Positions 49,502-64,000 of a DNA stretch of 64,000 bases are shown piece after piece. The DNA is from Botryllus schlosseri (Eukaryota). A program made the translations under genes and the position numbers. Within the stretch, counting starts at the first letter, position 1; every line of letters starts with the position of its first letter. The notes under the pieces are model-generated. The model had not been told where the DNA came from and ran no database searches. It was given only the letters and a program-made list of their open reading frames with translations. The stretch is from contig CM119372.1 in assembly GCA_051294905.1 (NCBI GenBank), positions 1,240,001 through 1,304,000 on the forward strand, written 5' to 3'.

Positions 49502-50624
49502 TGACGACGAAGGACGGTAATATCGAACCTCCCGCCGACGTGACAAGCATTATCACTATCGTGGTCGCGTCCGTGATAGGCGCCGTGATTGTGGGCGCAA
49601 TCATCGGATTGGTTTATATGATGAAGAGAAAGTACGTGAAAGAAGCGTTGCTATAGTTTTATCCAGTGAACAAGTTTGTGGTGGAAAAAATGTACAGCTC
49701 CATTAATTCTATTTACGTCGGGATTGCATTGGAATCGGGGCAGACTTGAAGAAATAAACCATTCTGATTGTCTAATTAAACTAAGCAGAGCGACACGTCC
49801 GTAATTTTGTTTGTGAAACGAATCTTCGCTACCATTTTAATTTTAATCTCATTCTGCTTTTTCTGCAACTGCTACTGTATACTGCAGATTGCGACACGAC
49901 CCGAGCCTAATGTACACACATTTGCCTTTCTCTTTCATATGAGAGAGAACTGTGATTTGGTATGGACTGGACTTGCTGCATTTCTTAGTAACTGGGAATT
50001 TAACTCAATGACCAAGTTTTTGCGAATTCAGTAATTCTAATTCTAATCGAATTTAGAAAAAAATGTGTAGCTATCATTGTAGTTGTAGGCTAATTTATGC
50101 TCTCATTTTAATTCCACTCAAATTTCTGTTTTACTGAAAATGCTACAGCAGAACTGTGTAGTGCGAAACGAGCCAAGGTTGGTGTACAGACATTTGTCAA
50201 TATCGAATGAACATCGAATATCGAATATATCGAATATCGAATTTGTCAATATGCGAATGACCTTTGATTTGATATGAATCGAACTTGGTTTTGTTGTATT
50301 TCTTTCTAAATGTGATTCGATTTCCAAGTTTTTGCGAATTCAGGAATTCTAATCTAGGTTTGGCTATTATTCTAATTCTAATTTGGAGAATCTGTTTCTG
50401 ACAGCCGGTCGGTGCCGATCCACGAAAGCGACCTCTACCCTTCCCAGCCCGCAGGCAGATTCACAAGAAGGGGCGATCCGGAGTTGTTTCGGCAAAACCG
50501 GGCTCAGCAATCGCTGGAGGACAAACTCACGCATCACGCTCAAGATATCAACGTGGACGAAGCGCAAAGATCAACATTCAACAATCCCTCAAACTCTTAC
50601 GCTCCCATTCCACGAAAGGAATGA
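49502..50624 (+). CDS. 3' part of a single-pass membrane protein gene (TM exon plus cytoplasmic tail exon)
   Basis: Exon 49502-49631 (130 nt, phase 1/2; VTTKDGNIEPPADVTSIITIVVASVIGAVIVGAIIGLVYMMKR) splices in frame to 50405-50624 (RSVPIHESDLYPSQ...SYAPIPRKE*). Upstream exons not found. Confidence 0.72.
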
Positions 50625-55087: not shown

Positions 55088-58000
55088 CTGAGAGACGCTA
55101 TACTACATACATAAAGGTAAATACCGATTGACTGAGCTGCATTTGACGACACAATTTATCCTACATAGTATACATTGAAATGGATTGAAAATTGTTGCAA
55201 GTCCTAGCTAATTACATGACAAGAAATGCAGGTTGTGGTGCATCGTGGTAACTGCAATTTCTAATGTTGGTGATCGTTTATTACATCACTAAGCATCACC
55301 ACAGCTCAATTAACGGTATGTGGTTTCCTGGTCAATCTGAGTTCGTCGCTGGTGCTGGGACGCGCTCTATAAAACTAATGGTCAGATCACAGACTATGTA
55401 GGCCTACTTCACATTTAAATATAATTAGCGCATGCGGAGACGAGACTTGAACAACTGCATAATTCTAGTAGCCTCTAGTTAGACTATTTAGAGTGAAGTT
55501 CCGGTAATCTAATTCGCCAAATGTTTCTATGCTCCGGTTATATTTCTAATCTAATTTCTGGTTTTGCTGAAAATGCTGCAAGTGAACTGTAAAGTGCAAA
55601 ACGACCGAAGCTTGGTGTACAGACATTTGCCAATCTCGTGCTTATGAGAATGAGCCCTTGATTTGATGTGAACTTATCTTTGATTTTAGTTGTATTTCAT
55701 TCTGATTATGAATTCCACTCGATTTCCAATTTTCTGCGAATTCAGTAATTGTGATTCTAATCTAATTCGTGAAAAACGGCGTAGCCGTCAGTGAAATTGT
55801 GATCTAATTCGGAAAAACGGAATATTTTATATTTGTCCAAATCTGCACGAGACACAACACATACAACGACATCATCATATTAGATCCCTTTAGGGCCTGA
55901 CATTTCTATGGCAGACGGTTTCGTCAATGGGCGTCTGTACTCTCCAAGCTCTGTAACGCTCAACTATATATATTGTAAAGCAAATGAAATATCGACTATC
56001 CCGAGTTGCCTAGGTATCTTTATCGTGCGAGTACATGAACGCGTGACCTTAAAAATACTGATCGTCAAATTGTTGTGGCAATCGAACGTGCTCGAGTGCT
56101 CTTGAATTTATCAATCAACACACAGAAATATGCTATATGTACGGCACATGGCATGATGTTCCGAGCTTACATGCATTGCATATACGATGCTTACACGCAA
56201 TAACGCTGGTGCTGTCATGACTGACGAAATATTCTCCAAAGACTTTGTTTCTCGACCACCAACACAGACTTGGACAGCTAGATCTAATCTAATTCGAATC
56301 TAATTTGTAACACGTTTCTATGCTTTCATTATAATCTAATTTCCAGTTTTCCTGAATTGCTACACGAGAACCATATAGTGCGAAACGAGTCATGCTTGGT
56401 GTGCTGACATTTAACATTCTCATGCATATGAGTATAAATCCTGATTTAGTATGAACTGAGCTTGATTCGGTGCATTTCTTACTACATTGGCTTTCGGTTC
56501 AATATCCAAGTTTTTGCGTATTCTTTTATTCCAATTCTAATCAAATTTTAGTTGAAAAGATTTTAGTTGGCTAACTCTACAACGCCGACTGCTTTTGAAA
56601 TGGTTGTCATGAAGAGCATGCACTAAAGCTTGGAACTATAACGCGTCACGTTAATGAATCGTGCTTGACTCAACAATTGCGAAGTGAGGAGTCATGGGGT
56701 GACTGCTTACGTCATCGGTTGCTGTATGAGACACAAGCGTTGAACGGAGGACACGCTAATGAAGAATTTATCGCATCTATAGGACGGGCATTAAAAGTAA
56801 GCGTAATTTCCGCAGGAATATGATCTGCAGCGGAAATGAGGGAGAACGGCTTATAAACTACATGAAGACACATCGCTTTATCAAGTAGGCTAAGTCGGAC
56901 CACAACTGTGGAATGACTGTGTCATGTCCACATTCAATTCGAAATGCAAGCAGCTTCTACTAAATGAATTCTATTACGGGACCACAATATGATTATCGAC
57001 CTCCCCCCCCACACACACTTGGACAACTAAAAAAGTTTCAGTTTTTCCAAATTAGATTAGAATCAGAATTACTGAATTCGCCAAAACTTGGAAATTGAAA
57101 TAAATTCCAAATTAACAAATACAATAAAAATCAAATTCGGTTCATATCAAATCCGAGTTGATTCCCATAAATATGGGAATGGTAAATGTATGTACACAAA
57201 AGTTTCTCTCGTTTCGTAAGATATCCTATAGATGTCCGGAAGTATTTTCTGAGAAACCAGAAATCTGATTAGAATTAAAATTAGATCATAGAAACATTTC
57301 AATTAATATATTATAGCTAATTTTTCGACATTTCGCTCTGGTCTCATTAGAGAATTAGAATTATCTAGTGTTCGAACTCGGCTGACACATGTCAACCAGT
57401 ATATATCGGTTGTCCTTTCATGTTTTCTTCCATTCTACTTTTCGTTCGGTGTGCATGCCTCTTATTTACATCACCTTGGCCCAGGTGGGTGTCTGATTGC
57501 GAAGTCTACTTGAAGTCGTTTGGACACATTCCTTTTTTGTCATTGTATCACAATCTTGTGGGGCTTTGATGAAATTATTTAAAATGAACTCAACTCAAAC
57601 CGAACGGAAATTTTTAAAGTTACTCGTAATCCAAGATTAGGCCTACTCATTATTTGGTTAGCACCAAAATGTCGTCAAGAGTGGAGATCTTCACCCGAGC
57701 ACTGCTTCGATATTAGTTGCCTAACCTGTTGTTGATAATTAATGGCGTCTCGAAATCTGTGGTTCCTAGGCGACTTATAGCACGGCTCACTTTCGTCCTA
57801 GGATTTTGTGAGACACCGCTTACGCGGATCCCATGGCGATGTGGACCCTATATAATATATCAACTGTAGCAATATTAGCCGCCATATCGAACGCTTTATA
57901 TTTCAACCATACGGTCAGGACACTGAGGAGTAGCATCCAATTTATTGAGAAGCGGCTGCTTGGACTCTCCGATGTGAGACGAATGCGACGTCATCGAAAC

Positions 58001-58945: not shown

Positions 58946-59592
58946 TGGAGGGAACATTAGGGAGCAGGTTTCTCCGGGGATTATGTGTGTATTCACCAGT
59001 TTTACCGTGAATAAAGAATATAATATATAATATCAATATTAGGGTTGGGTACTAGAATCTGAATCGAGTATTAATTCGAATGATTCGTGTCGTATAGTGA
59101 GAGATGATTTTCGAGCAATGAAATGATACGCTCCTTGCCACTGTAAGAGTTCAAGTAACAACGAGAATTATAGTTTCGATACACTGTGGCTGTAATCCAC
59201 AATTGGTCGTATCATCGAGACATGTAGTACGAAGCTATATACTCTCGTGGCATGGTTGAAAAAATTGCCCAACAAGCTTTAATGTGATGCAGCCAGATCA
59301 TTCTATTCTTTGTGGTCGCGTAAAATGGTACATATTTGAACTTACCCCATTTTTCATACTCGATTCAGAAGGTTTCGGACAACATGCGGCGATCTTTTTG
59401 GGCCATGGTTTATTGCCCTCGATTTTGCTGGAGAACGGTATGATTGTGACGTTTAAAAGCCAAGGAAGATCCCCAATATTTGAGACCACGTCTTTCCGAA
59501 GCGAATACTTTCATTTCGGTCGTTACAAGTTTCATTTCGTGCAAAGCACCGGAATGAGAAATATCAATATTGGTATAATCGATTGAGACTAT

Positions 59593-59776
59593 TGTGGTGT
59601 TAGTAATCATTGTTGATGTAATCATTACGCTTCTTTATATTGCACCCGCTGTCGTGGGTATGGTCATTCCTTATTTGCCGAGTTGCTGTTAGTTGTACGT
59701 CTCGCTAATATTAAAGTAGTATTGGACTCAGCGTTCTGCGTTCCTGGTCATTGGATATTGGGTCTAAGTCAGGACA
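59593..59776 (+). repeat. 5' LTR (184 bp)
   Basis: Identical by eye to 63636-63819; TATA-like TTTATAT near 59634; ATTAAA at 59710-59715. Confidence 0.97.
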
Positions 59777-59801
59777 GTCTACTTTAATATTTTCTTGAAG
59801 C

Positions 59802-62800
59802 ATGGCCGAAAGACTGAGATCGCCAGATCGATTGAGCATCGATCCAGAGGATTCCAGGGCACCAACGTTGTTTCGCCACTGGAAGCGACAGCTCACTGAA
59901 CATTTCACGGAGCTCGAGGAGCGTCGGAAGGAGAATGACCCTCATGTGAACAAGCTCAGAGTTTTGATCCGTGCCGTGAGCTCCGAAGTCTACGGTTACA
60001 TTGCCGATGCTACAACGTTCGACGCCGCCATGAAGTCGCTTGGGGAAAGGTTCGAGAAGACTATCAACACTGTCTATGCAAGACACCTGTTGGTGAGTCG
60101 GCATAGGAAAAGTGGGGAATCGATCGCGGCGTTTCATCAGACGCTCGTGGAACTCGCTCGCAACTGCGAGTTCACTGCGGTTTCTGCGGCAGAGCACCGA
60201 AATGAAGCTCTGCGCGATGCATTCGTGAATGGACTGAATATACCGTTCATACAGCAGCGCCTGTTGGAAAAGAGTGATCTGAAGATTGATTCGGCGCTAG
60301 AATTAGCACAGACCTTGGATCAAGCTGCAAAGTATTCGGCTGATGTGTCTGCTAATAGCAATCTAGCGATGGCGAGAAATCCTGATTACTCGAGTTCTAC
60401 CTTCACAGAGTCGCAATCTTCACGAAGCCCTTCTGGTCGAGATTCTGATGGTGATAAAATCGCTGCAGTTCGTAGACGAAAACATCAGAAGCGGAAGAAA
60501 AAGAAATGTCGGTATTGCGGGGAACGCAAGCACGACGGTAAGGGCTGCCCTGCGTACAAGGCTCGTTGTTATAACTGCGGGCGTAAAGGACATTACGCAA
60601 AAGTGTGCGAGTCAAAGCCGCAGACGGAGTCGCCTATGTCGGCAGCTGTTCATGCCTCTGCCGACTTGCAGCGTCGCGCTGTTCTGGCCGGCGCCCCGAC
60701 ATGCCTAGGCAAGGCTGTCGTACCCATATATTTGAGGAGGAGAAAGTTGAAATCCCTGTTCGACACCGGGGCTGCTATTAACTTCATTGACGCGCGGCGA
60801 GCGCGGAAGTTGGGGATGAAGTGGAGAGGCGGATCATCGTCGGCTGATCTTGCGGTTAAGAACACATCTGCAGAAATCTTGGGTTTCGTGTGGACAGATT
60901 TCACTTGTTGCGGTCGGCGCTACCGAAGCATCAAGTTCGCCGTTATGAAGGACCTTTGTGCTGATGTTATCATCGGACATACATTCATGGAGAAACATCG
61001 CTCCATAATATTTCCGATGGGAGGGGATCTTCCACCACTGAATATAAAGGAGTTGGCAGACGCCGGTGAGGAGTGTCTCGTTGATGATAATCAGGCGAAA
61101 TCTGTTCCCACCACCGACCCTACTGTGTCTGTTGCAGCTGCCAACGGTCTGGAAGAACCGAGATTGTTTGAATTCATGACTCCGGATTGTCACCCTATTG
61201 CTTCGCGCTCGCGAAACTACAGCGAGGATGACAAGTCGTTTATTAATGCGGAGATCAAGAGGATGCTCGAATCGGGTACAATTGAACATAGCCGTTCACC
61301 TTGGAGAGCCCAACTTGTTGTAGTAAAGAGTAACCGTAAAAAGAGGTTGGCTGTGGACTACTCTACAACGGTAAATCGTTTCACGTGTCCAGATGCGTAT
61401 CCGTTACCTCGTATCGAAGATCTCGTTAACAAAGTTGCCCTAGACAAGTGGTATAGCAGCATCGATCTGAAAGAGGCATACCACCAGCTGAAAATTCGTG
61501 ATGACGAAAAGATTTACACTGCATTTGAAGCCAACGGGAAACTCTATCAGTTCCGGCGCGTTCCTTTTGGAGTAACCAATGGCGTGGCAGCGTTTCAGCG
61601 GGTGATGGATAAATTCATCGAGAATAATAACTTGAAGAAAGTCTACGCATATCTGGATGACTTGACAGTTACTGGGGCGACGAGAGACGAACACGATGAG
61701 AACTTACGAAAATTGCTAGATGCAGCGGCCGAGGTAGGACTGCATATCAACGAAGAGAAAAGTAAGTTTGCTCAAACTAGTTTGAATATACTTGGTTACG
61801 AGATCTCTCATGGAAAAGTAAGTCCTGATCGAGAGCGAATGAAACCTTTGATCGAGATGAAAGAACCGACAACACCAAAAGAGTTGGCAAGAATCAAAGG
61901 TTTGTTTGCTTACTATGCTCGCTGGATACCTGATTTCTCTACTCGTATCCGGCCCTTAAACGTGAGTGAGCTGCCTCTGGATTCAGAGGCTATCAAGGCA
62001 TTCATAACATTGAAGGATGATCTCGCTAAAGCTAGTCTTTGTGCAATCCGCGATGATTTGCCGTTTCAGGTTGAAACCGATGCATCAGATGTGGGCATAG
62101 CCGGCGTTTTGGCTCAGGGTGGCCGCCCTGTTGCATTCATGGCGAGAACACTAAGCAAACACGAGCGGAACTACCCTGCAATCGAAAAAGAAGCTCTAGC
62201 TATTATCGAAGCGATCCGGAAATGGGAACACTTCTTGAAGGGTCGTCACTTCACATTAACTACTGATCAGAAGTCTGTATCGTTCATTTTTGACAAGAGA
62301 AACCGAGGGAAGATCAAGAACGCGAAACTTACAGCGTGGCGGTTGGAACTTGGACAGATGTATTACGATATATGTCACAGACCAGGTAGGCTGAACATTG
62401 TTCCTGATGCATTGTCTAGACATGTCGCAGCGAGCATCCCAACGACTATGCAACTTCAAGAAATTCATGACGCTCTAGGTCATCCTGGCATGGCTCGACT
62501 GGGTCATTTTGTTCGAAATAGAAACCTTCCTTACACCACCGAGGAAGTCAAGGCTATATGTAGGAACTGCAGGGTCTGTGCAGAACTGAAGCCAAGGTTC
62601 TTCAAAAGAAATCCTATTCCATTGGTAAAGGCTTCGAAACCCTGGGAACGGTTGTCCATGGATTTTAAAGGCCCAGTAAAAGGTCAGTTTCCTCATGTTC
62701 TTATAGTTGTTGATGAATACAGCAGATTCCCGTTTGCCTTCCCGTGTAAAACGACAACGTCGGAGGCTGTAATTGAATGCCTTGAGGATCTATTCAGTGT

Positions 62801-63593
62801 ATTTGGGTTTCCAGAATTTGTTCACAGCGATCGGGGATCGTGTTTCACCAGTAAAGAAATGAAGAAATTCCTGGCTGAAAGAGGCATTGCATTCAGTAAC
62901 TCGACGCCGTATCATCCACAAGGCAACGGCCAATGCGAACGCATAAATCAGACTGTATGGAGAACTGTCAAATTACTCCTGCGTTCTCGAAACTTGCCTG
63001 AAAACAAGTGGACTGATGTTTTGAGTCAAGCATTGCATTCCGTTAGATCTCTTTTGTGTACATCGACTAACGCGACGCCGCACGAGCGGTTTTTCTCTTT
63101 CAGCAGACGCTCTATGTGTGGGGAAAGCTTGCCCGAGTGGCTATCGTTTGGACGACCGGCACTTCTGCGACGATTCGTGAGGAGGAAAGGAGACCCTCTC
63201 GTCGACGAAGTGACCATACTGGAAGCGAACAAAACCTATGCCAAAATACGGCTACCAAACGGTAACGAAGGAACTGTATCTACTTCTGATCTTGCCCCAT
63301 GTCCAACAGGTGCAGACTTGGAGCATGGTTCCAGAGTGCAGAATGACGATGGTGAAAGAAGGGAGATGTCGAAACTTGATGGTACAGCATTGGCTGACGC
63401 AGATGACGATCCTGTTTGCGATGAACCCGAAAGCCTGCGTCGCGAACTTCAAGAACCGAATTCTCCATCAAATGACGGAGCCGCCGAAAGGGACGAGACC
63501 GTTCGATCTGAAACTCCGACGCTACGGAGATCATCAAGAATCCGAAAGGCTCCCGATCGCTATGGCCAATCCGTTTCTATTATACACTCGTAA
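59802..63593 (+). CDS. Gag-Pol polyprotein, single 1263-aa ORF
   Basis: Two CX2CX4HX4C knuckles (CRYCGERKHDGKGC, CYNCGRKGHYAKVC); protease LFDTGA; RT with PFGV and YLDD; RNase H ETDASD/IEKE; integrase HDALGH..CRVC, SMDF, SDRG, NGQCER; C-terminal LRRSSRIRKAPDRY. No env or chromodomain seen. Confidence 0.97.
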   Translation: MAERLRSPDRLSIDPEDSRAPTLFRHWKRQLTEHFTELEERRKENDPHVNKLRVLIRAVSSEVYGYIADATTFDAAMKSLGERFEKTINTVYARHLLVSRHRKSGESIAAFHQTLVELARNCEFTAVSAAEHRNEALRDAFVNGLNIPFIQQRLLEKSDLKIDSALELAQTLDQAAKYSADVSANSNLAMARNPDYSSSTFTESQSSRSPSGRDSDGDKIAAVRRRKHQKRKKKKCRYCGERKHDGKGCPAYKARCYNCGRKGHYAKVCESKPQTESPMSAAVHASADLQRRAVLAGAPTCLGKAVVPIYLRRRKLKSLFDTGAAINFIDARRARKLGMKWRGGSSSADLAVKNTSAEILGFVWTDFTCCGRRYRSIKFAVMKDLCADVIIGHTFMEKHRSIIFPMGGDLPPLNIKELADAGEECLVDDNQAKSVPTTDPTVSVAAANGLEEPRLFEFMTPDCHPIASRSRNYSEDDKSFINAEIKRMLESGTIEHSRSPWRAQLVVVKSNRKKRLAVDYSTTVNRFTCPDAYPLPRIEDLVNKVALDKWYSSIDLKEAYHQLKIRDDEKIYTAFEANGKLYQFRRVPFGVTNGVAAFQRVMDKFIENNNLKKVYAYLDDLTVTGATRDEHDENLRKLLDAAAEVGLHINEEKSKFAQTSLNILGYEISHGKVSPDRERMKPLIEMKEPTTPKELARIKGLFAYYARWIPDFSTRIRPLNVSELPLDSEAIKAFITLKDDLAKASLCAIRDDLPFQVETDASDVGIAGVLAQGGRPVAFMARTLSKHERNYPAIEKEALAIIEAIRKWEHFLKGRHFTLTTDQKSVSFIFDKRNRGKIKNAKLTAWRLELGQMYYDICHRPGRLNIVPDALSRHVAASIPTTMQLQEIHDALGHPGMARLGHFVRNRNLPYTTEEVKAICRNCRVCAELKPRFFKRNPIPLVKASKPWERLSMDFKGPVKGQFPHVLIVVDEYSRFPFAFPCKTTTSEAVIECLEDLFSVFGFPEFVHSDRGSCFTSKEMKKFLAERGIAFSNSTPYHPQGNGQCERINQTVWRTVKLLLRSRNLPENKWTDVLSQALHSVRSLLCTSTNATPHERFFSFSRRSMCGESLPEWLSFGRPALLRRFVRRKGDPLVDEVTILEANKTYAKIRLPNGNEGTVSTSDLAPCPTGADLEHGSRVQNDDGERREMSKLDGTALADADDDPVCDEPESLRRELQEPNSPSNDGAAERDETVRSETPTLRRSSRIRKAPDRYGQSVSIIHS

Positions 63594-63635
63594 CGATATT
63601 CATTTCGTATTGTATATTATTTTGGCGGGGGAGAA

Positions 63636-63819
63636 TGTGGTGTTAGTAATCATTGTTGATGTAATCATTACGCTTCTTTATATTGCACCCGCTGTCGTGG
63701 GTATGGTCATTCCTTATTTGCCGAGTTGCTGTTAGTTGTACGTCTCGCTAATATTAAAGTAGTATTGGACTCAGCGTTCTGCGTTCCTGGTCATTGGATA
63801 TTGGGTCTAAGTCAGGACA
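63636..63819 (+). repeat. 3' LTR (184 bp)
   Basis: Identical to the 5' LTR, preceded by the PPT and followed by TSD ACTAT. Confidence 0.97.
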
Positions 63820-64000
63820 ACTATAAACGAGAATAGCAACTGGAAGTGTTTGGAACTTGTGTAAATTACGACGAAGCTACGACTGCCTTATTACCTATAC
63901 ACTGAAATCTTTGATTGTCTTTTGCAACACACGGTTAGTAGTGATTGAGACGCTGGTGTTGTACGTTATGAGATCTGAAATAATGTATTAAAATGGGAAT

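Follow-up and report, generated by a model that had tools for sequence, protein, structure and literature searches.

The window analysed here, a stretch of 64 kb from Botryllus schlosseri (CM119372.1; C2:1240001-1304000, in a host genome of about 495 Mb), contains an LTR retrotransposon of 4227 bp at positions 59593-63819, the parts of which are collected in Table 1. In a direct repeat search of the window the 5' and 3' LTRs proved 100% identical over 184 nt, with the 5' copy ending in ...GGACA at 59776. Two CCHC knuckles are visible in the translation of the gag-pol frame, and Pfam models identify a protease, RVT_1, RNase H, an integrase zinc domain and an integrase core, in gypsy order; Pfam gave no chromodomain match, either for the whole protein at a threshold of E<=0.001 or, with the threshold relaxed to E<=10, for its last 230 residues. 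The features of a Ty3/gypsy element are all present: LTRs bounded by TG...CA, flanking target duplications, a polypurine tract, and domains that follow one another as protease-RT-RNase H-integrase. The polypurine tract GGCGGGGGAGAA is found also 5' of the 3' LTRs in other copies of the family. Because of its identical LTRs, target duplication, polypurine tract and full open reading frame, the element has a young and complete appearance, and it looks to be a recently inserted, intact LTR retrotransposon of Ty3/gypsy order.

Table 1. Coordinates of the retrotransposon's features within the 64-kb window
Feature	Positions	Strand	Basis
Target-site duplication ACTAT, left copy	59588..59592	+	Letters read; same five bases 3' of the 3' LTR
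5' LTR, 184 bp, TGT...ACA	59593..59776	+	Direct repeat family D1
LTR arm AATATTAAAGTAG, proposed self-primer; holds ATTAAA at 59710-59715	59707..59719	+	Homologous arms of relatives covary with primer sites
Stem-loop inside the loop, with stems UCCUGG/UCAGGA and UUGGAU/GUCUAA	59742..59774	+	MFE and centroid structures
Two-base spacer GT, from LTR end to primer site	59777..59778	+	Letters read
Primer-binding-site position CTACTTTAATATT, 13-nt exact reverse complement of 59707-59719	59779..59791	+	Letters and motif count
Single gag-pol ORF, 1263 aa	59802..63593	+	Translation and Pfam
Polypurine tract GGCGGGGGAGAA, abuts 3' LTR	63624..63635	+	Letters read
3' LTR, second arm copy at 63750-63762	63636..63819	+	Direct repeat and motif count
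Target-site duplication ACTAT, right copy	63820..63824	+	Letters read

Upstream of the element the window also holds diverged direct repeats of about 93-98 nt, with 72-75% identity, at 50003-50204, 55540-55809 and 56324-56421. These are probably copies of another dispersed repeat.

The primer-site position is complementary to the element's own LTR

Starting two bases after the 5' LTR, the segment 59779-59791 is the exact reverse complement of LTR positions 59707-59719. The pairing extends over exactly 13 nt (13/13), the flanking bases being unpaired, and the letters at the junction contain no TGG-type tRNA site after the 5' LTR. When one mismatch is allowed, the 13-mer occurs three times in the 64-kb window, once per LTR on the plus strand and once on the minus strand, at the primer-site position; shuffled versions of the window gave a mean of 0.17 matches, and none of 100 shuffles reached three. 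The 13-mer is AT-rich and includes the palindrome AATATT. RNA corresponding to 59707-59795 has a minimum free energy (MFE) fold of -26.4 kcal/mol (z = -3.9), and none of 200 shuffles folded as well. In that fold the 13-bp stem closes a loop holding both inner stems, the inner stem-loop itself being a feature of the fold without covariation support.

A sequence-only reading of this window had pointed to most of these features, namely the 13-nt complement, the lack of TGG after the LTR, the stems TCCTGG/TCAGGA and TTGGAT/GTCTAA within the loop, the ATTAAA inside the paired LTR segment, and the combination of two zinc knuckles with no chromodomain. All of its statements on the sequence of the element hold: the complement agrees with both the letters and the motif count, both inner stems lie inside the MFE fold, the hexamer is where it was placed, and the knuckles and the lack of a chromodomain match are as given above.

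No tRNA gene was found in the 64-kb window by ARAGORN. A 15-mer complementary to the primer site has 11 exact matches in the host genome, seven of which are primer sites of copies of the element. The other four were considered as possible host tRNA primers and rejected, as ARAGORN does not find them to be tRNA genes. Matches with one mismatch numbered 256, and since the reversed control gave 452, they are at chance level. An Rfam search of the host genome returned at least 63 tRNA places, these being the top-scoring ones; the tRNA check itself consisted of the window scan and the genomic 15-mer matches. A single host RNA shared as primer among the related families described below was likewise rejected, because families of the same genome have differing sites, each matching its own LTR. 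Within the compared set, that is, the window scan and the genomic matches to the 15-mer, no host tRNA explanation fits the primer site.

The element's own family gave 41 matches to LTR plus leader in the host genome. Five of these, the window's copy included, have a 5' LTR joined to a leader, and both arms are identical in all five, so the family itself is uninformative on covariation. One further copy, L009 (G000:C4:25473632-25473819 and onward), runs from the LTR through GTC directly into the zinc-knuckle region of gag, an internal deletion that removed the primer site and the gag N-terminus.

Related elements keep the arrangement and change its sequence

A search of the host genome with the RT-IN region gave 2451 first-look candidate matches, of which 70 were scored; among these 70, members of the element's own family are 93-100% identical and the others 53-57%. 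Related families of the same genome, with 44-48% identity to the element over the whole polyprotein, carry a complement of their own LTR one base after ...ACA, with lengths of 12, 15, 16, 16 and 19 nt, and the complementary sequences differ from family to family. A scan of metagenome contigs, using an alignment of 18 polyproteins, added 71 loci, many of them on eukaryotic contigs with full elements and the same arrangement of arm and site. The survey thus comprised 101 loci, 30 from the host genome (counting the window's element) and 71 from metagenomes.

For each locus we scored the longest perfect inverted repeat with a loop of 20-110 nt in the 300 nt upstream of gag, counting exact complements only, so that G-U pairs inside the arms fell outside the scoring. 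The gag N-terminus was recognisable in 53 of the 101 loci, and the frequencies given here were counted on those 53. A perfect complement of the locus's own LTR, 11-19 nt in length, occupies the primer-site position in 47 of the 53. Where at least 120 nt of upstream sequence was present (42 of 53), a perfect inverted repeat of at least 12 nt was found in 36 of 42 and one of at least 11 nt in 38 of 42; for the 11 loci with a short upstream part, the complement of the leader was found in the 3' LTR copy in nine. The remaining six loci include decayed versions with one or two differences (L126, L128 and L092), a 5'-truncated locus (L058), and a permuted contig with an 11-nt pair at its other end (L082). 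The last, L078, has no leader complement in its own LTR and is the sole relative with a full 5' region to lack one. Its closest relative in the tree described below, L077, has a 13-nt pair (for L078, positions 1-150 were examined).

Two controls show how seldom such pairings are found elsewhere. Of 250 internal coding-region windows of 310 nt, none reached 12 nt, and the maximum, 11 nt, was attained once. For elements of the tRNA-Leu type in this genome, none of 12 LTR-leader junctions had an LTR complement exceeding 8 nt. The host genome carries 22 exact copies of ...ACA followed by a Steamer-like tRNA-Leu-type primer site (L061-L072, in G000, among them), and one element with a Steamer-type site, L071, has an open frame of 1351 aa. 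Gypsy lineages with tRNA-Leu sites and gypsy lineages with self-complements therefore coexist in one genome.

At least 28 distinct arm sequences were obtained; their lengths are 11-19 nt, and the loops that they enclose measure 24-87 nt. When aligned from the loop side, the 28 arms differ from one another at a mean of 5.3 of 12 positions, and an arm compared with the site of another entry forms a mean of 6.7 of 12 pairs, full pairing being seen in only 8 of 756 cross pairs. Each of arm positions 4-12 shows three or four types of Watson-Crick pair. The 100% pairing of each arm with its own site in this table is a product of row selection, and the informative figures are the survey frequencies and the controls. 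Like the anatomy of the element and the absence of a tRNA-type site, the covariation across the clade is a matter of direct observation. A search among relatives for changes in the LTR that are compensated in the primer site was the test that the sequence-only reading had proposed for its candidate, a self-priming gypsy element outside the chromodomain-bearing Tf1/sushi group. With the complement kept in 47 of 53 related loci through at least 28 arm sequences, that test was passed and the candidacy is supported.

A shared architecture emerges from the 28 entries. The two arms pair in the MFE fold in 28 of 28 cases, and in 28 of 28 the first two bases facing each other within the loop are mismatched; so hard a boundary on the loop side is as expected if the primer has a defined 3' end. 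The LTR arm ends in AAA in 21 of 28, GCC or ACC follows it directly in 22 of 28 (the AAA/RCC junction), and in 20 of 28 the four bases before the second arm are ACAA, made up of the end of the LTR and a single A. In many relatives (L080, L084, L093, L095, L098 and L133, for example) a small hairpin, RCCUA...UAGGY, directly follows the arm, and it may form part of a structure for cleavage or strand transfer. Variants of this hairpin have either GCC with GGC or ACC with GGU. The window's element is an outlier in this company: its arm extends 4 nt beyond the usual end (GTAG/CTAC), its spacer is GT where most relatives have a single A, and it has neither the RCC motif nor the small hairpin. The architecture of the clade can be stated in a testable form, as arm, AAA/RCC junction, small hairpin, ...ACA, A and complement. 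One metagenome contig of a relative, L135:1-4046, opens with the base that follows the LTR arm and closes with the final base of the arm; the assembly may have broken there in a collapsed LTR, or the boundary may hint at an RNA end at that point.

The poly(A) signal and the ends of the RNA

Either AATAAA or ATTAAA lies inside the arm in 15 of 28 entries, and most of the others end in near variants such as GTTAAA, TTTAAA and AGTAAA. By comparison, a canonical hexamer is found in the loop in 4 of 28 and in the 100 nt upstream in 1 of 28. In the LTR of the window's element, where the letters were inspected by eye and not by a scan, no second AATAAA or ATTAAA was seen besides the ATTAAA of the arm. 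The poly(A) signal thus seems to sit in the arm, with cleavage to be expected 10-30 nt later, inside the loop. Cleavage inside the loop would mean that a short stretch of R remains after the cut that frees the primer, as first strand transfer requires. The occurrence of the hexamer in the arm across the clade is consistent with a further role for the helix between arm and site, which may mask the poly(A) signal at the 5' end.

Promoter-like motifs near the arm were read by eye. A TATA-like box lies about 28 nt 5' of the arm in the families of L046 and L096 only, and the window's element has a TATA-like run about 70 nt upstream of its arm. No consistent TATA box or initiator was seen at the arm's 5' edge across the families.

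RNA reads on the element numbered 14 in run X24, none in X21 and 59 in X22, a depth at which there is no pile-up of 5' ends; among the 14 + 59 reads there were also no poly(A) loose ends and no joints. Contigs of X1 continue into other flanking sequence and are in this respect DNA-like. The single-cell reads of X22 are from the sense strand and fall mostly in 63404-63711 and in the first 115 nt or so of the LTR. They thin out after 59707, in bins that are 154 nt wide and with LTR reads that come from a variant copy. Both 59632 T>G and 59634 T>C are present in 12 of 12 of these reads on the LTR, and 8 reads enter a different sequence before 59593. Given these variants and the differing flank, the expressed copy is another member of the family or another LTR context.

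Placement of the element among gypsy lineages

Database relatives of the element are 52-63% identical to it in RT-IN. Those with names include 'K02A2.6' or zf(CCHC) proteins of Ciona intestinalis, the Ciona proteins having 57-61% identity in this region; others are labelled Trichuris, Trichinella, Mytilus, Armadillidium, Loxostege, Scyliorhinus and Narcine, so that the protein labels of the clade span a tunicate, a mussel, nematodes, an isopod, a moth and a shark. The best named matches in RT-IN are of 'K02A2.6' and '17.6' types and not of Tf2 types, which is a weak hint as to affinity. L071, the element of the same genome with a Steamer-type tRNA-Leu site, is 23% identical.

A quick tree was computed with IQ-TREE on 31 rows, comprising 22 of 44 long frames (near-duplicates having been removed) and 9 named or database proteins; with SH-aLRT support and a midpoint root, its deep forks are weakly settled. 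The element falls near the base, adjoining a group with the Ciona proteins and L125, and the branch leading to L071 is very long. The self-complement occurs in each of the major sub-branches with DNA to examine, a distribution suggesting that the trait goes back to the origin of the clade. By sequence comparison, the element is a member of a large, animal-associated clade of gypsy elements with a single gag-pol frame and no chromodomain. A single gag-pol frame is a feature of Tf1 as well. Judged from the absent chromodomain and the named homologues, and not from an RT tree, the clade may have an origin separate from Tf1/sushi.

Discussion

On evidence that is computational throughout, a complement of the LTR at the position of the primer site is probably best explained by self-priming of the kind known from Tf1. 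On that model, transcription would begin at or before the arm, so that in the genomic RNA the LTR arm 59707-59719, belonging to the R region of the 5' LTR, could fold back onto 59779-59791. The element's own RNase H would then cleave the duplex at its loop-side end, and the freed 3' end would prime minus-strand DNA two bases from the edge of the LTR, with synthesis proceeding through the spacer and U5. Strand transfer would use the part of R that begins at the cut and extends to the poly(A) site. Later, the plus strand would copy the attached RNA primer and so rewrite the primer site. Rewriting of this sort, by analogy with the models for Tf1 and retroviruses, would account for the perfect Watson-Crick helices seen in nearly all copies. 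As the partner of the helix lies only downstream of the 5' LTR, the poly(A) signal might be hidden at the 5' end of the RNA and free at the 3' end.

Other explanations of the same arrangement differ greatly in what they can accommodate. The AT-rich composition of the 13-mer and the palindrome AATATT within it might suggest a functionless inverted repeat that arose by chance in AT-rich DNA. However, no shuffle of the window in 100 gave three matches, no control window in 250 reached 12 nt, the junctions of tRNA-Leu-type elements stayed at 8 nt or below, and the same arrangement recurs with other sequences in 47 of 53 related loci; the probability of such an accident must be considered negligible. 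A helix that acts solely as a structure of the leader RNA, in masking of 5' polyadenylation, packaging or dimerisation, with a host RNA or tRNA fragment as the actual primer, would suit the stable fold and the poly(A)-type hexamer covered by the arm in many families, and it gains some room from a host tRNA comparison that covered the window scan and the 15-mer matches. Against it, every family has its second arm within one or two bases of the LTR end, where a minus-strand primer is required, with no other primer site present, and the sites differ between families of one genome. Perfect Watson-Crick arms of 11-19 nt also fit rewriting of the site better than selection on folding alone, and the four exact 15-mer matches outside the element are not tRNA genes. 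We regard this account as unlikely.

Self-priming could also operate with the arm in U3 rather than in R, in which case the copy of the arm in the 3' LTR, on the same RNA or on a co-packaged one, would anneal to the primer site, be cut and serve as primer. We know of no element for which priming from a 3' LTR copy of the arm has been established. The conserved AAA/RCC junction (GCC or ACC in 22 of 28) could mark a U3/R border, and an arm in U3 would also agree with the failure to find a TATA box or initiator shared across families where the arm begins, and with the 14 + 59 available RNA reads, among which there is no 5'-end pile-up; the contig L135, bounded at the arm's 3' edge, can be read in the same way, but its boundary is possibly an assembly break. 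The hexamer found in 15 of 28 arms implies an arm transcribed at the 3' end, upstream of cleavage, which an arm in R explains equally well. Against an arm in U3, moreover, stands the consequence of the cut itself, which would sever the piece carrying the 3' R and poly(A) on which strand transfer depends. To this variant we assign a low probability, and Tf1-like priming by the R arm of the 5' LTR remains the preferred reading.

Relation to known self-priming and tRNA-primed elements

In Tf1, a segment at the 5' end of the RNA folds back and is cut into the primer (PMC4600332), and the same source extends self-priming, as a description or a prediction, to Tf2, Tj1 and the Tf1/sushi group besides Tf1, with Tj1 an inferred case. 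Self-priming is also predicted for the Tcn1 clade of plants and moss and for the TAR lineage of Ty1/copia (PMC6317226), and a list of elements with predicted self-primers includes Houba and Osr-1 of TAR (PMC6934838). Skipper of Dictyostelium has neither TGG nor a complement in its LTR (PMC5006619).

The element of B. schlosseri resembles Tf1 and Tf2 of Schizosaccharomyces pombe and Tj1 of S. japonicus in having no tRNA site and, after the LTR, a complement of its own LTR or RNA. Unlike those chromoviruses it has no chromodomain, and its hosts are apparently animals. Also unlike Tf1, its clade has arms of 11-19 nt, and in most cases a poly(A)-type hexamer closes the arm, with RCC as the next three bases. 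The primer of Tf1 is described as the 5' segment of the RNA, whereas the arm in this clade is known here from DNA. With Tf1/sushi (in vertebrates and fungi), Tcn1 and TAR the clade shares a prediction of self-priming that is clade-wide and drawn from complementarity between LTR and primer site; it differs in being a gypsy clade without a chromodomain, Tf1/sushi and Tcn1 being chromoviruses and TAR a copia lineage.

In its general build the element also resembles Steamer and the Mag lineage, small elements of animal hosts whose LTRs measure about 180 bp and whose single gag-pol frame encodes two zinc knuckles (PMC8905726, PMC11046912). The primer of Steamer is given as tRNA-Leu, with the site TGGTGTCAGAAG (PMC8905726); MchSLE1 is said to use tRNA-Asn (PMC11046912), and Mag elements of mosquitoes are assigned tRNA-Leu or tRNA-Ser primers (PMC3286476). 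In contrast, the primer site of our element is not tRNA-like, and its identity to L071, the Steamer-site element of the same genome, is 23%. A possible link with Cigr-1 of Ciona intestinalis is suggested by the Ciona proteins among the closest named relatives. The original description of Cigr-1 reportedly gives a length of about 4.2 kb and a single frame, as in the element described here. Molluscs also carry elements of the Cigr-1 clade. The clade is mentioned in PMC6238403.

Among full texts open to searching, and to the extent that they could be seen, we found no report of self-priming in an animal gypsy element without a chromodomain; subscription papers were outside the scope of this search. 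In those sources, experimental proof of self-priming is confined to Tf1, and predictions extend to chromoviruses of fungi, fish and moss and to one copia lineage of plants (PMC4600332, PMC6317226, PMC6934838).

Implications

Although the mechanism proposed here belongs to a kind already known, it appears to have in this clade a large host lineage not previously recognised. The candidates for self-priming are thereby extended to a large set of gypsy elements of another type, which seems to be widespread in animals. We would go further only tentatively, and with somewhat less than even confidence: a chromodomain-less gypsy clade found in many animal phyla may have dropped tRNA priming independently of Tf1/sushi, with a self-primer that doubles as its poly(A) signal.

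Annotation pipelines that look for tRNA primer sites may, we infer, leave elements of this type with no primer site assigned. The idea that hairpin priming preceded tRNA priming in the evolution of LTR elements, as put forward in PMC3601003, is also a question on which this clade bears.

On the tentative reading of an independent loss of tRNA priming, a single RNA helix would serve to initiate reverse transcription and also to keep the 5' LTR from being polyadenylated, and the primer site would be rewritten from the LTR in every cycle. The link between primer and poly(A) signal provides a simple hypothesis for how an LTR of just 184 bp tells its 5' copy from its 3' copy. Freedom from host tRNAs could, under the same tentative reading, ease moves between distant hosts, and it might permit escape from host defences aimed at tRNA primer sites.
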